Assembly: GCA_016719105.1 (NCBI GenBank)
Contig: JADKAQ010000046.1
Location: 518,272-582,271, forward strand
Source of the DNA: Gemmatimonadota bacterium
GTDB taxonomy: Bacteria > Gemmatimonadota > Gemmatimonadetes > Gemmatimonadales > Gemmatimonadaceae
Direction of reading: 5' to 3'
DNA length: 64,000 bases
The notes beneath the pieces are model-generated. The model did no database searches. It was not told the origin of the DNA and saw only the letters and a program-made list of their open reading frames with translations. Below are positions 29,317 to 34,447 of the stretch, piece after piece (position 1 is the stretch's first letter; each line of letters begins with the position of its first letter). Both the position numbers and the translations under genes were made by a program.

Positions 29317-30642
29317 TCAGTCCGCGGCTTCGAACTCCAGCGAGAGCTGCCGGCGACGTGGGCGATAGGCCTCACCCTCAAGATGCGGGCGCATCGCGGC
29401 CGCGATCGCCTCCACCAAGGGAACCACGACCGAGTTGCCGAACTGGCGATAGGCCTGCGTATCCGAGACGGGGATCTCCCAGCGTCGGTCGCCGCGGTCG
29501 AAGCCCATGAGTCGCGAGCACTCGCGCGGCGTTAGGCGACGCGGATTGCCGCTTCCCGCTTCACGAGGATCTCGGAACCGTCCTTGTAGTATCGTGCCGA
29601 CAGTGTTCGGGCGATGTCGTTCGGTCCCACGAGCCCGAAGCCGAAGCCGTTACCCTTCGCGCGATGCTTGTCCGCGTAGTCCTGCAAGTACTTCCACAGA
29701 TGATCGGTGAGGACGTACTTGGCGTGCGGGCGTCCCTTCGCGTCGATGAAACGGTCGTCCGCCACCCCTGCCTCATCCTTGGAGTGTAGGATGTCCCGAA
29801 GCACGGGCCAGTGCTCCTGCGCCGGGATGGCCACGTCCTCCCAACTGAAGTCAGTGTCCTCTCGGAATCCAACCAGGAAGATTCGTTCGCGGTGCTGCGG
29901 GACAAACGCGCGTGCGTTGATCACCTTGGGCCAGACGCGATAGCCGAGCTTTTCCTTCAGCGTCCGGACAATAACTGCGAACGTGCGACCACCGTCATGT
30001 CCCTGCAGGTTCTTCACGTTCTCGAGGAGAAACGCCTTCGGGCGATGATGCTCGAGGATTCGTTCGACCTCGAAGAAGAGCGTCCCCTGCGTCTCGCACT
30101 CGAAGCCGTGCTTGCGACCGAGTGAGTTCTTCTTCGAAACGCCGGCGATGCTGAACGGCTGACACGGAAAGCCGGCGAGAAGGACGTCGTGCTCCGGAAT
30201 GTCCTCCGGAGGCGACCTTCGTGATGTCGCCGGCGATGTGATGATCACCGAAGTTCGCGCGATATGTGCGCTGCGAGTGCTCATCCCACTCGGACGTGAA
30301 GACGCATTGTCCGCCGATCGACTCGAATCCGAGCCGAAGGCCGCCGATACCAGCGAAGAGATCAATGAACCGAAACGAGGGTGGCGATTCGCGCACCACA
30401 CTCACCTTCGGTTCGAGTCGGCGCCGCAGCTCCGCGAGTTCGAGCGCGCTGGGTTCGTGCTTGCCGCTCTCCCAGCGTTTCACGGTCGCGAGCGAACAGT
30501 CCGCGACCTTCGCCAGCTGTGACTGGGAAAGGCCGTTGCGGATGCGCAGGTCGTGCAGCTCGATGGCGACCGACGGCTTAGCGGGTTTTCTTCGGGCGGA
30601 AGGCACGGTGACAATCTGACACCGAGTTGTCCCGTGGGGCAA
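29317..30642 (-). pseudogene. dcm: HTH-fused DNA cytosine-5 methyltransferase (Dcm/M.EcoRII-like), interrupted by two frameshifts as sequenced
   Basis: Frame 1: XRE-type HTH (LRIRNGLSQSQLAKVADCSLATVKRWESG) then motif [11 protein letters not shown]. Frame 2: motif [13 protein letters not shown] (LLENVKNL), QHRERIF. Frame 3: [16 protein letters not shown] and motif [12 protein letters not shown]. Shifts near 30200-30216 and 29541-29565. Start TTG 30642 or GTG 30606. Confidence 0.85.
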
Positions 30643-30809
30643 GAGCCACCCGACGTCTGCTCATCTCTCCGCCGCGCAGTGCTCAAGCGATCAACAGGAC
30701 TCGACGCCTGGCACGCACGCCCAGTTGCGCCATCTAGCGATCCCGCGACTCTGACCCACGACGCGACGCCCGCGATGTCTCGCCAATGTCGCAGCCATCG
30801 CAACCCCAA

Positions 30810-31481
30810 ACCGACGCCCCATCACCGTGTTCCGATCCAACCTACGGCCCAACCGACAATCACTCGCCGAGTACTGATCTTCCTCCTCACCCAACCGACG
30901 CCAAAGCGCCGTGTCCCGATGAGCGACCGCACCTAACCGATGATCGCTCGCCTTGTTCTGATCATCCGAAACGCCGTATCGAGGCGCGCACCCCGTGCGC
31001 TGATCATCGGTCGCGCTCCACCGAAGAACGCGCGCCTCATATCGATGACCGGCCGCACCAGACCGACGATCGCTCGCCACGTTCTGATCGTCTGCAACGC
31101 CCAACCAACGTGAGCGCGCGGCGAACCGATCCTTTGTCACGACCTACAGGCTTTGGGTCACTTTGTACTGATCATCCGTCGCGCCCAATCGACGCGTGTT
31201 CGCGGCGTTCTGATGGCCCGTCACACGTGACCGACGAACGAGCGTCGCGTACCGGCCCTCTATCACCCCGAACTGAGGGTCTGCCACGCCACACCGGTGA
31301 ACGAGCGTCGCGCACCGCTCCTCTCTCACGTTCAACAGGCGACGGCGCGCCAACTGGTCATCATTCGTCGAGCCACATCGACGACAACGCAGCGCGAACA
31401 CATCCTCGCGCGAGCCCGACGCACGCGCACACGGCACATCTACATCCTCGCGCGAGACTCACCCGCGCTCACGCACGACAC
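30810..31481. repeat. degenerate 42-bp tandem repeat array, about 16 units
   Basis: Unit starts (ACCGAC-like) at 30810, 30852, 30894, 30936, 30978, 31020, 31062, 31104, 31146, 31188, 31230, 31272 and 31314, with CATCCTCGCGCGAG at 31401 and 31443. Best-matching units are 30936 and 31062 (ACCGAyGATCGCTCGCC...TTCTGATCrTC). There is a 21-bp sub-period and eight GATC sites. Confidence 0.85.
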
Positions 31482-31949
31482 TGACGTCAACCCGTCAGTT
31501 GACAGTCGATCGCGCGCGACACGCATTCGCGCCAACGTTCACAGAAGATCGACGCGGCACTTCGACCCGCGAATCGTCAGCGCGAACGAGCCCTCGCGAT
31601 TCGATCGACGACCGTCGCGCGATCGCTATCGCTCGCGCGTGTGCGATGGCACCGACCATCTCGCCCGATAACGCCTTCCGTACGGCACGCGGAAGTCGCG
31701 GCAAACGAACGCCGAGGCGCTATCCGCCGCCCACCATCCCCGGCCACAGTTCCTCCCCTGGCACGATCCCCCTGAGGAAGGCCGCCATCGGCAGCGCGGA
31801 AATCACCCCATCGCGCTCCGCCACCTCGGCGTCGGTGACGGCGATGAGGCGAGCCACCACGCGCTCTTCGTCGAGGACGGCTTTGGACGGCGTTTCCGTC
31901 CAAATCAAGCCGATGTGGACGGTACATCCGTCCAGATCCGGCTTCTTGG

Positions 31950-33029
31950 CTACTCGCCACCCCCCGCCACCTCCCACCGCGCCCCACGCCCCCGCCCAAG
32001 ACACCGCACCTTCCCCTCCCGCTCCAGCTCCTTCACCACCCGCCGCACCGCGACCATCGACGCCCCCGCGACTTCGGCGCCGATCTCGGTCAGCGCAAAC
32101 CGCTCCCGCCCCGGTCGCATGACAGCCACGCGCACCCGCTCGTCCACCGAACCGGCGTCGTCCAACGACAGCTCGCCCTGTGGCGTCTCACGCACGATGG
32201 ACGGTGGCGGTGCTGCGCGATGAGCCGCACACGCCACAAAGAAGCGGTGCGTCCACTGGTTGGCCAACTTGCGATTGCCGGCGAACACGATCGGCAGTCG
32301 AGGATGCATCACCGTGAGCTCGGCCAGCGCGCGAGCCACGAACGGGGCCGGCCAGCGCCCCTCCAGGCGCTTCTCGTCGATGAAGTCCGCGTACTGCGCC
32401 TCCACCACCAGCGCACTCCACGCGTACTGCCCCAGGTGCGCCAGCGCGTGGTGCAACGCCTGGATGGCGCCGAGGTCACCCAGCAGGTTGTCGAACGACT
32501 TGCGCTCGACCACGGCGGCAATGCGCTCTCCATCGAGCAGGGCGTAGTCGCCAGCGGGCAACTTGCGCGTGGTGACGGCCGCTCCCGGAAACTTCCACGC
32601 ATATCGCTCGCCGCTGTCGATCACCAGTTGCAGCTCGGCGTCGCCACCTCTCACCTCGAGGCGGGAGCGCGAGCGGTGGGAGCGGATCCCCGCCTCGGTG
32701 CGAAAGAAGACCTGTTCGTAGCTGCCGGGGCGATCGCGATACGGCTTGGCGATGAAGAGGAACTCGCAGCGCTTGCGCAGCGGGCGGTCGAGGACAATGG
32801 CCAGCTTGCGGCCGAGTTGCGTGCAACTGATGACGGGGACGCGTTCGACGAGCGTCATCGGCTCCTCCGGCTCGGAGCCGTCCTCACGCAGGCAGAAGAC
32901 CTGTTGTCCCGGTCCGGGCCACGCGGCGCTTGCGCGCACGGCGAGCAGGGTGCGCCCGTCTCGTTCGACCGCCACGCGGAAGGGGAAGCGGGGGTGGGTG
33001 GTGCGGTGCACGGTCCAGTGGGTGGTCAT
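31950..33029 (-). CDS. ERCC4 (XPF/Mus81-type) nuclease-domain protein with C-terminal winged-helix region
   Basis: 359 aa. LVIDSGERY ... LPAGDYALL ... AAVVERKSFDNLLGDL matches the ERCC4 signature (D-x-x-E / GDY / ERK-x3-D). C-terminus ASMVAVRRVVKELEREGKV looks wHTH-like. The N-terminal ~130 aa is unassigned. Confidence 0.75.
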   Translation of the reverse strand: MTTHWTVHRTTHPRFPFRVAVERDGRTLLAVRASAAWPGPGQQVFCLREDGSEPEEPMTLVERVPVISCTQLGRKLAIVLDRPLRKRCEFLFIAKPYRDRPGSYEQVFFRTEAGIRSHRSRSRLEVRGGDAELQLVIDSGERYAWKFPGAAVTTRKLPAGDYALLDGERIAAVVERKSFDNLLGDLGAIQALHHALAHLGQYAWSALVVEAQYADFIDEKRLEGRWPAPFVARALAELTVMHPRLPIVFAGNRKLANQWTHRFFVACAAHRAAPPPSIVRETPQGELSLDDAGSVDERVRVAVMRPGRERFALTEIGAEVAGASMVAVRRVVKELEREGKVRCLGRGRGARWEVAGGGE

Positions 33030-34249
33030 GCGTCGTGGTCCGAATGCCGTCGACGTGTTGCCCGGCGTGCACGTCCACTCTCGCCGACGGGCGGCAGGAC
33101 CTCGAGGACACGGGTCAGTGGAACGGCCTCGACCCGATCAGCGAGCGGGAAGACCTCCGTGCCTCCGTGCACGACATACAACCGATCGAGCCGCAGGTCG
33201 GCGAGGGCCGAGCGCATGGACGGCGTGAGCTTGGGCGACGAGGTCCGCTTGAACTCGACCCCCACTCGCGTCTCCCCGCGCACGACGAGCAGGTCGAGCT
33301 CTGCGCCGGCTTGTGTCCCCCAGAAGTAGGCCTCGCCTGGGCGCGCCTGCAACTGATCGAGCACGACGTCGAGCGCGAACCCTTCCCACGAGGCACCGAC
33401 CTTCGGGTGTGAGTCGAGCTGCGCGATCGACGTCACGCCCAGCAGGGAGTGGAGCACGCCGGCATCCCGGAGGTAGACCTTGGGCGCGCGCACCTGACGC
33501 TTGGCCAGGTTCTCGTGCCATGGCGGCAGCTGGCGCACCATGAAGGTCTCGGTGAGGACATCGAGATAGCGTTGCACCGTGGTGTGCGCGACGCCGAACG
33601 CCCGGGCGAGTTCGGACGCGTTCCATGTCTGCGCATGATAGTGCGCGATCATCGACCAGAAGCGACGAAGCGCGGGGGCCGGGACGCGCAGGCCGAACTG
33701 GGGAATGTCGCGTTCCAGGAACGTGCGGATGAATGCCTCGCGCCATTCAGCACTCGCGGCGTCAGTGCGGGCCAGGAATGCGCGCGGGAACCCTCCCCGC
33801 AGCCAGCGGCGCCCGAGCCGCGCGACCCCAACGTCCTGCAGCCGAAGCCCCGTCAGTTCGTGATATGCGATGCGGCCGGCCAGCGACTCGGCGCCCTGGC
33901 GCAGCAATTCGGGCGACGCACTCCCCAGCAGCAGGAACCGACGCTTGACCGCGGTGTCATCCGCGAGGACGCGGACGGTGTTGAACAGGTTGGGCGCGTG
34001 GTGGACTTCATCGATGACGACCAGTCCCCTGAGCTCCCGCAGGGCGAGCAGCGGATCGGCGAGCCGTGCGGCGTCGGCCGCACTCTCCAGATCGAACCAG
34101 GTGGATGGCCCTTTCCACGTAGCGACAAGCTGCCGCGCGAGGGTCGACTTCCCCACCTGCCTGGCACCCAGCACTCCGACGACCGGGAACTCGCGCAGGA
34201 GGGTCTTCACGCGGACGACGTCGGCCGGTCGATCCAGCAGTTTCGCCAT
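33026..34249 (-). CDS. AAA+ ATPase (COG1373 / DUF4143-type)
   Basis: Start ATG 34247-34249 (the ORF is open to TTG 34276). Walker A GARQVGKST, Walker B LVVIDEV. C-terminal architecture is typical of AAA_14+DUF4143 proteins. The stop overlaps the ERCC4 gene ATG (ATGA at 33026-33029). Confidence 0.8.
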   Translation of the reverse strand: MAKLLDRPADVVRVKTLLREFPVVGVLGARQVGKSTLARQLVATWKGPSTWFDLESAADAARLADPLLALRELRGLVVIDEVHHAPNLFNTVRVLADDTAVKRRFLLLGSASPELLRQGAESLAGRIAYHELTGLRLQDVGVARLGRRWLRGGFPRAFLARTDAASAEWREAFIRTFLERDIPQFGLRVPAPALRRFWSMIAHYHAQTWNASELARAFGVAHTTVQRYLDVLTETFMVRQLPPWHENLAKRQVRAPKVYLRDAGVLHSLLGVTSIAQLDSHPKVGASWEGFALDVVLDQLQARPGEAYFWGTQAGAELDLLVVRGETRVGVEFKRTSSPKLTPSMRSALADLRLDRLYVVHGGTEVFPLADRVEAVPLTRVLEVLPPVGESGRARRATRRRHSDHDA

Positions 34250-34447
34250 ATCGCAAATTGAGCGTGTGTCGCTCAATTTGCAAGGTACTGGCTTCTACTG
34301 CAACGGAGGATCCCTGCGGGTGCACCGACCCCGTCGGCGCCGCGGCCACGGCGATGCCAGACCCTTCTGAACCAGCAAGCGACCGTGCAGCGCCCGCTGC
34401 GTTTCTCTCGGGAACCGATACCTCCCTCGGCGCACCAACACGGCCTG

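Follow-up and report, generated by a model that had tools for sequence, protein, structure and literature searches.

The tandem array at positions 30,810 to 31,481 of the 64,000-nucleotide stretch analysed here (hereafter the window; contig JADKAQ010000046.1 of the Gemmatimonadaceae assembly GCA_016719105.1) is non-coding DNA and not a gene, and it consists of 42-bp units, each made of two related 21-bp halves, whose register has outlasted heavy substitution. It very probably belongs to a class of intergenic arrays of the Gemmatimonadales that keep the length of their unit, which corresponds to two or four helical turns of DNA, and their position; their sequence differs by site and turns over fast between species. 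Arrays of this class usually lie ahead of a lineage-specific gene that we designate gene X, and our analyses suggest that the window array is probably an orphan, decaying and non-coding member of the class, which has no gene X next to it.

The 42-bp register of the window array

Over 30810–31481, the array is identical to itself at 0.54 of the positions at a lag of 42 and at 0.52 at lags of 84 and 126, compared with 0.28 ± 0.018 in shuffled sequences and a maximum of 0.36 over any lag and any shuffle, and the 21-bp sub-period gives an identity of 0.39 at lag 21. As a lag of 42 scores best in every local 126-bp interval from 30770 to 31400, there is no register shift, and we therefore agree with the initial annotation, which had described an exact spacing of 42 bp from 30810 and two related halves per unit. 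In total, there are 16–17 units of exactly 42 bp, depending on whether the array is counted from 30768 or 30810, and 256 differences from the consensus over 672 positions are accompanied by not a single register-shifting indel. Units 1–11 (30810–31271) show 64–79% identity to the consensus ACCGACGCTCGCTCGCCGCGT ACCGATCATCCGTCGCGCCCA, units 12–16 just 33–48%; a repeat search recovered 7 in-register copies, including the extra weak unit at 30768. Because the lags of 42, 84 and 126 give about equal identities, the units are about equally distant from one another, which is the pattern of an old array that decays through point substitution. Tandem Repeats Finder, which had been proposed as a check, reports no array in the window, as the units are too diverged for it, and the proposed search for further copies gave no match to the array DNA elsewhere in the genome or in 40 relatives, so that the array is single-copy. 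A CRISPR array was considered and rejected, since this requires a conserved repeat of at least 23 bp with unique spacers, and the conserved motifs of each half-unit are only 5–7 bp long. The clustering of GATC that had been pointed out also has a simple basis: the array contains 9 such sites, and the 8 sites counted in 30876–31170 stand, but about 2.3 and not about one are expected there at the rate of 6.9 per kb in the whole window, and the sites belong to the repeat consensus (cTGATC, GAyGATC) and are not independent events.

The array was found in four further assemblies, namely two NCBI metagenome-assembled genomes (MAGs), an ENA MEGAHIT contig and a Logan contig, at 97–99% identity and with the same 16 units. 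The sister-strain assemblies were located via the identical protein encoded by the neighbouring ERCC4 gene, and five strain assemblies were compared in all, among which no change in the copy number of the array was seen. As the same array is present in independent assemblies, it is not an assembly artefact, and this concern of the initial annotation could be dispelled.

An open frame of 232 codons indeed runs across the array, as had been noted, and the corresponding open reading frame (ORF) was annotated by one gene caller in the ENA contig. We nevertheless regard it as very unlikely that this is the gene of a disordered protein with 14-aa repeats. The period is a multiple of three, and when the columns of the array are permuted, a null that keeps their composition, 3.6% of the trials leave the frame open. 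Conservation between units in the + frame amounts to 0.83, 0.80 and 0.48 bits at codon positions 1, 2 and 3, and thus is lower at third positions, where the initial annotation had seen no concentration of substitutions, yet the difference is not significant (permutation p = 0.086). On the other side, a search of 5.8 billion proteins gave no homologue of the frame, Pfam gave no match to it, no Shine–Dalgarno sequence precedes its ATG, and the GC content at third codon positions (GC3) is 0.55, compared with 0.82–0.88 in host genes. The single-nucleotide polymorphisms (SNPs) among the strains fall on 11 sites of the frame, with 4, 6 and 1 at codon positions 1, 2 and 3, and this is the opposite of purifying selection on a protein. 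Furthermore, codon phase was shown by none of the 13 arrays of the class that were tested, and 3 of them are interrupted by stops in all six frames. Gene callers also annotate spurious ORFs within arrays at homologous loci, just as in the ENA contig.

Length-locked arrays ahead of gene X

In the following, G000 is the genome that holds the window, G003 is a sister species, G009 and G012 are relatives, and L numbers denote loci from other assemblies. When the complete genome of 6.65 Mb was scanned by lag spectrum, 44 periodic loci were obtained, and the largest class among them, with 10 loci, has a period of 21 or 42 bp; nine of these ten lie in gaps without gene-like ORFs. When only intergenic loci with a period of at least 15 bp are considered, 8 of 11 have exactly 21 or 42 bp, and the other three are two loci that represent the CRISPR array on C19, plus one other locus. 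The repeats within genes have periods of 18–132 bp with a single case of 21 (1/16 versus 8/11 intergenic; Fisher p = 6e-4). The arrays occur at a density of about 1.5 per Mb, and the rest of the genome, outside the arrays, shows no 21-bp periodicity. Each array is composed of alternating 21-bp halves, and its unit sequence is unique to its locus. Comparisons by position weight matrix (PWM) of the window array with the C4 array, the fmt-side array of G003 and the G003 array at the syntenic position gave z = 2.0–2.8, which is not significant, and common descent of the arrays can therefore not be claimed. The contexts in which the arrays occur are mixed and include gaps between convergent genes. 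With its exact 42-bp unit of 21-bp halves, the absence of indels, its intergenic and non-coding nature and its locus-specific sequence, the window array can be assigned to this class with high confidence.

How such arrays evolve can be seen in an orthologous gap on C4 that is flanked by genes for an integron integrase and an oxidoreductase. The gap of G000 is occupied by 18 units of 42 bp and that of G009 by about 19 units of 42 bp whose sequence is diverged; in G003, two 21-bp arrays with other sequences are present, and G012 lacks an array. These differences among relatives indicate that the arrays turn over and homogenise fast, and always on the 21/42-bp grid. The integrase at this site (G000:C4:16603-18550; other loci are L024, L025 and L026) is a true IntI (TIGR02249, 389 bits) with the array on the attI side, and at L089 in another genome, IntI, array and gene X follow each other consecutively, again with the array on the attI side of IntI. 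A general link of the arrays to integron integrases was rejected, as 9 other loci with IntI homologues carry no array.

The genes that adjoin the arrays on C13 and C35 are paralogues, and these define gene X, with a third paralogue in G003. A 21-bp-periodic stretch lies immediately 5′ of six of the eight gene X copies or fragments in the genome, and the other two are C-terminal fragments. All six homologues from other assemblies (L049–L054, 42–67% identical) have a 21/42-bp array, which is restricted to the 0.5–1.5 kb upstream and occurs nowhere else in the locus. Gene X is present in 24 of 201 sampled genomes of the phylum, and all of these belong to two families of one order. The association was analysed statistically with the 26 gene X loci, from 22 further genomes, that had enough flanking sequence, using a threshold of 0.12 for the periodicity score. 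The upstream score reached at least this threshold at 18 of the 26 loci and the downstream score at none; the upstream score was above the highest downstream value in 24 cases, and the medians were 0.165 upstream versus 0.025 downstream. The arrays ahead of gene X are about 0.2–1 kb long, and the distance from their end to the start codon is usually about 10–150 bp, with a maximum of about 540 bp. The genes past the array are heterogeneous across the gene X loci, and the conserved unit thus consists of the array and gene X. At 3 of about 24 gene X loci, a divergent gene for an extracytoplasmic function (ECF) sigma factor or a FecR anti-sigma factor lies beyond the array (L049:402-1112, L050:1-1187, L103:2852-3499), and with only these three cases, ECF sigma neighbours were rejected as a general partner of the arrays. 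A small FN3 gene does not occur in this genome.

In the subfamily of C35-like genes, the transition from array to gene is strongly conserved and follows the pattern GAAGGACGCGCGCGCGC-N13-CGCGTCCAC-ACCATAG-N6-GGAGGA-N6-ATG. This junction of about 65 bp contains an invariant inverted pair GGACGCG...CGCGTCC, a −10-like CATAG/TATAG and the Shine–Dalgarno sequence GGAGGA, and probably serves gene X as promoter and operator. The homologues of gene X are all named “hypothetical protein” and all come from Gemmatimonadota, and no match was found in Pfam, NCBIfam, PHROG or PDB. The family members have about 240–280 aa, with about 210 residues built of very long helices that are followed by a Pro/Thr-rich disordered tail, and their core is uniformly very basic (median pI 10.9). 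In the AlphaFold model (predicted local distance difference test score, pLDDT, 85), two helices of about 56 residues are part of a bundle to which the disordered tail is attached, and in a fold search with this model, all matches were coiled-coil-like and none was significant (best E = 0.14).

As the arrays end very near the start of gene X, they could be a 5′ leader in these modules, and the gene X product is basic; such arrays might therefore be thought of as repetitive non-coding RNA, for example a long leader or a multi-site sponge for an RNA-binding protein. For the window array, however, this has very little probability. Neither strand folds beyond shuffles (z = 0.12 and 0.07), which speaks against the structured RNA that the initial annotation had considered, the best Rfam E-value was 0.5 and below the gathering score, and promoter-like or terminator-like signals, including a sigma-70-like promoter, were not found near the array. 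Furthermore, the window has no remaining downstream gene to which a leader could belong.

In the literature that we searched, no description of such 21/42-bp length-locked arrays was found. What is new here is the partner gene family, encoding a basic long-helix protein, which is statistically well supported, and the genome-wide spectrum of periods.

An orphan array at a variable junction

The window array is located in an accessory island, among restriction-modification and defence-type genes (Table 1). Neither the window nor the sister-strain loci gave a match to a profile of gene X or to one of the junction; the junction was sought by profile, a loose pattern search being uninformative in this GC-rich genome. 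With neither gene X nor a junction match, the window array is an orphan, and four other orphan arrays exist in the genome (C1, C4, C20, C46:659k). A comparison with the sister species gives an idea of how this state may have arisen. In the orientation of the window, the syntenic interval of G003 contains Dcm, an HNH gene, a degenerate 21-bp array, gene X and an intact DUF4143 gene, and the window interval contains Dcm, the array, a 236-bp spacer and then both ends of the same DUF4143 gene. Most likely, the common ancestor had a module of array and gene X at this place, and gene X was later lost in the lineage of the window. This loss would have occurred in rearrangements that also gutted the DUF4143 gene and introduced the ERCC4/ATPase pair, and the leftover array would now decay by point substitution. 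We thus consider it rather probable that the window array is an orphan relic with little or no present function.

Table 1. Coordinates of the window array, its neighbours, and the gene X copies and junctions
Feature	Position	Strand	Remarks
Well-preserved array part	30810..31271	none	11 units of 42 bp; lag-42 identity 0.55-0.58 in each local window
21-bp halves of well-preserved units			ACCGAYGNTCGCTCGCC.. / ..CTGATCATC.GTCGCGCC..
Degenerate array tail	31272..31481	none	5 units in 42-bp register; best local lag 42 (0.37-0.54)
232-codon open frame across array	30786..31484	+	ATG at 30786; judged not a gene
Spacer, array to HTH-Dcm gene start	30643..30809	none	No sigma-70-like promoter found
HTH-fused C5 cytosine methyltransferase (Dcm)	29532..30642	-	Pfam HTH_3 + DNA_methylase; EcoRII-like dcm-vsr-restriction endonuclease operon
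Spacer between array and DUF4143 remnant	31482..31717	none	Most polymorphic stretch among strains
DUF4143-type AAA ATPase gene remnant (second such gene)	31718..31945	-	3' end 31718-31855 and 5' end 31884-31945 left
ERCC4-domain protein gene	31950..33029	-	Pfam ERCC4
Gene X copies in G000	C35:6335-7111; C24:3701-4435; C8:294546-295199; C13:341982-342827		
Junction copies	L049-L054 around 2440-2500; G000:C35:6261-6339; G000:C24:3627-3703		

The initial annotation had described the surroundings of the array as a 1.3-kb gap without a convincing gene. This holds for the array itself, but the right part of the gap contains the remnant of a DUF4143-type ATPase gene, of which about 1 kb between the surviving ends is deleted. 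The ends are 89–91% identical to those of intact genes of 395–397 aa (G000:C11:5713-6900 and, in G003, L011:4212-5405). Counted from the array to the right, the order is the DUF4143 remnant, the ERCC4-domain gene and a DUF4143 AAA ATPase gene. Relative to G003 and C11, the pair of ERCC4 and DUF4143 genes (31950–34276) is an insertion between the remnant gene and a formyltransferase-like gene. On C83 of G003, the formyltransferase-like gene has an array of 20 units of 42 bp directly upstream (L011:2396-3236), whose core motif CARGYGAC is common to several gene X arrays, and the counterpart of this place in the window holds an IS256 insertion and a glycine-repeat gene.

Among the strains, the ERCC4 gene has 3 changes in 1080 bp, all of them silent, and the intergenic gap that holds the array shows 1 indel per roughly 25 substitutions. 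The spacer between array and DUF4143 remnant has 14 variable sites in its 236 bp, including one 1-nt indel, and relatives give no match to it. The sister strain L012 (GCA_016715665.1) has kept the array, and the sequence to the left of about 30734–30800 is completely different (L012:5297-7080), with vsr in the opposite orientation. With this unrelated left flank, the array sits at a strain-variable junction. The gene of the helix-turn-helix (HTH)-fused Dcm is split by two 1-nt indels in comparison with the intact 432-aa copy in the sister assembly GCA_016713015.1, and these indels (an extra C at 30209 and a G missing from the G-run at 29558) resemble homopolymer errors of long reads, or else point to a gene that was inactivated very recently.

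These comparisons are also relevant for the idea, put forward in the initial annotation, that the array is a platform for one of the proteins encoded next to it. HTH-fused methyltransferases are known autoregulators, and the better-preserved end of the array lies 126–168 bp upstream of the Dcm start, which is on the other strand, a distance like that in gene X modules. The array could thus regulate the dcm-vsr-ecoRII operon and be bound by the N-terminal HTH of the methyltransferase. We judge this to have only a slight chance of being correct, as the 94%-identical HTH-Dcm of G003 has an HNH-nuclease gene and no array directly upstream, as the sister strain retains the array with a different left flank, and as an autoregulatory operator requires one or two sites and not 32. 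The ERCC4-domain protein had been the second candidate, and it was rejected since six loci with ERCC4 homologues in other taxa (L043–L048) have no 21/42-bp array.

The 21-bp grid also resembles that of replication origins. Iterons of plasmid and chromid origins (pSC101, R6K, P1, F, RK2) are direct repeats of about 19–22 bp that are spaced about two helical turns apart, and their arrays typically have 3–9 units; tandem-repeat partition centromeres are found in sopC of F (12 × 43 bp) and parC of R1 (10 × 11 bp). The drift-free 21-bp halves in the 42-bp unit agree with the helical-phase direct repeats of about 17–22 bp in an iteron origin, the modules have the array beside a gene whose product could bind it, and array and adjoining gene would have to co-evolve as in iteron systems. 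With sopC and parC, the likeness is a long tandem array with a unit near 42–43 bp or a multiple of the helical turn, beside the genes of its users. In the window, the direct repeats on a 21-bp grid, within their accessory island, could accordingly stem from an integrated element, as its iterons, its relic origin or its partition centromere. However, a rep gene is absent among the neighbours of the array that were identified with Pfam (Dcm, Vsr, EcoRII-N, ERCC4, DUF4143 ATPase), there is no parA/parB or parM/parR operon within about 4 kb, no AT-rich unwinding element lies by the array (at most 55% AT in any 40 bp), and the DnaA box TTATCCACA does not occur in 29800–32800 even when 1 mismatch is permitted. 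Iteron arrays also differ from the arrays described here in that the latter have 16–50 poorly conserved units, with the window units only about 54% alike and thus far more diverged than functional iterons, and in that about ten of them are spread over the chromosome in unrelated contexts, the window copy being without a partner gene. In contrast to sopC and parC, there is no gene of the ParA, ParB or ParR type, the units have no inverted repeat for the binding of a dimer, and the arrays are chromosomal, multi-copy and different in sequence at each locus. What remains of the initial proposal is therefore a non-coding set of helically phased direct repeats, with 21 bp as two turns, and the relic origin or centromere is the least probable of all explanations that we considered.

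Two further features of the genome were noticed. The CRISPR array on C19 (G000:C19:300-1800) has the 37-bp repeat GTCTCAATCCCTCAGTGCTCTCAGGGATGACCGCGAC at a period of about 73–75 bp. Furthermore, several intergenic stretches of 0.5–1.3 kb are nearly all G and C with long poly-G/poly-C runs (G000:C3:26301-27101, C8:180801-181401, C8:290601-291301, C14:191701-193001, C14:250101-250701, C46:423901-424501, C30:33401-34001), and these may be noise of a long-read MAG assembly or a real low-complexity feature.

Origin of the length lock and possible function

The main rival to any functional reading of the class is a purely mutational origin of the length lock. The array would then be a neutral minisatellite, in which a 21-bp unit was duplicated and unequal recombination or slippage added whole units, so that the register results from the mode of growth and not from selection, and neither the array nor the class would have a function. 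In agreement with this, the arrays resemble minisatellites and variable-number tandem repeats (VNTRs), such as the mycobacterial interspersed repetitive units (MIRUs) and the satellites of prokaryotes, as intergenic head-to-tail repeats that are gained, lost and homogenised between close relatives. Sequence turnover between species is fast, one relative has an empty site, orphan arrays last without gene X, and the contexts are heterogeneous. However, slippage predicts many unit lengths, and the intergenic arrays in this genome are nearly all of 21 or 42 bp; the position immediately 5′ of gene X is kept across two families despite the change in sequence; and the many substitutions of the window array came without a register-shifting indel. 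MIRU-type families also have one sequence across their loci and a variable copy number, unlike the arrays described here with their locus-specific sequence and fixed length of 21 or 42 bp: the window unit is not dispersed, other arrays have other units, and 16 units are present in all five strain assemblies. A survey of prokaryotic satellites reports no 21/42 length lock (Subirana and Messeguer, 2019; PMC6749651). We therefore regard the neutral origin as rather unlikely, but it is clearly ahead of the alternatives for the window array that were discussed above.

Several of our own results weigh against the interpretation of the window array as an orphan of a selected, helically phased class. 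The homology of the window array with the syntenic array of G003 is not demonstrable (PWM z = 1.97), and the two arrays may thus have originated independently. Five of the about 11 arrays of the genome are without gene X, and the orphan arrays at the C4 site are still homogenised and length-locked in three species, which implies that gene X is not needed in cis and that the lock could stem from the mode of expansion. The SNP density of the window array is 1.6% among the strains, which is near the rate of synonymous change in the neighbouring ERCC4 gene and hence about neutral, so that no constraint on its sequence is visible. The window array alone shows a weak codon-like pattern together with an open frame (p = 0.086 and 0.036). 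Finally, the periods of 21 and 42 bp can also be divided by 3 and by 7, and helical phasing is therefore not the sole possible reading of these lengths.

With these reservations, the geometry of the arrays suggests how the class might function. Strict direct repeats at a distance of two turns would present the same face of the helix at each unit, and such an arrangement would suit a cooperative, one-sided binding of proteins and also an additive intrinsic curvature. As a two-turn grid is the geometry of cooperative binding, the arrays can be read as phased landing platforms for proteins that lie ahead of gene X and are possibly read by the basic gene X protein. We put this forward tentatively: that the class acts as a helically phased protein-binding platform is a possibility that we rate somewhat below even, and the basic, rod-like gene X protein would be the obvious candidate for the reader of the adjacent array. 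A more far-reaching variant, which we consider doubtful and slightly less probable than the neutral origin, is that the arrays are an undescribed cis-element along which the gene X protein, or another “ruler” protein, polymerises in a two-turn register. The helical rod of gene X would measure about 85 Å, as estimated from the roughly 56-residue helices of the model, and would nearly match two turns of DNA. In this scenario, the length of the unit would be under selection together with a short motif co-evolving with each paralogue, but the remaining sequence would not, and orphan arrays such as that of the window would be footprints of lost modules.

In summary, the results for the window remove four readings of its array, namely an origin, a methyltransferase platform, an RNA and a repeat protein. 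Long spurious ORFs that result from such arrays have to be expected in gene calling. Tandem arrays of bacteria are usually defined by their sequence, whereas the class described here conserves the length of the unit and the position ahead of one lineage-specific gene in two families of the Gemmatimonadales. A conserved length with a free sequence suggests that the length or the helical phase of DNA is measured by some process or protein, and one small basic protein with its cognate array is a concrete and cheap system in which this can be tested.

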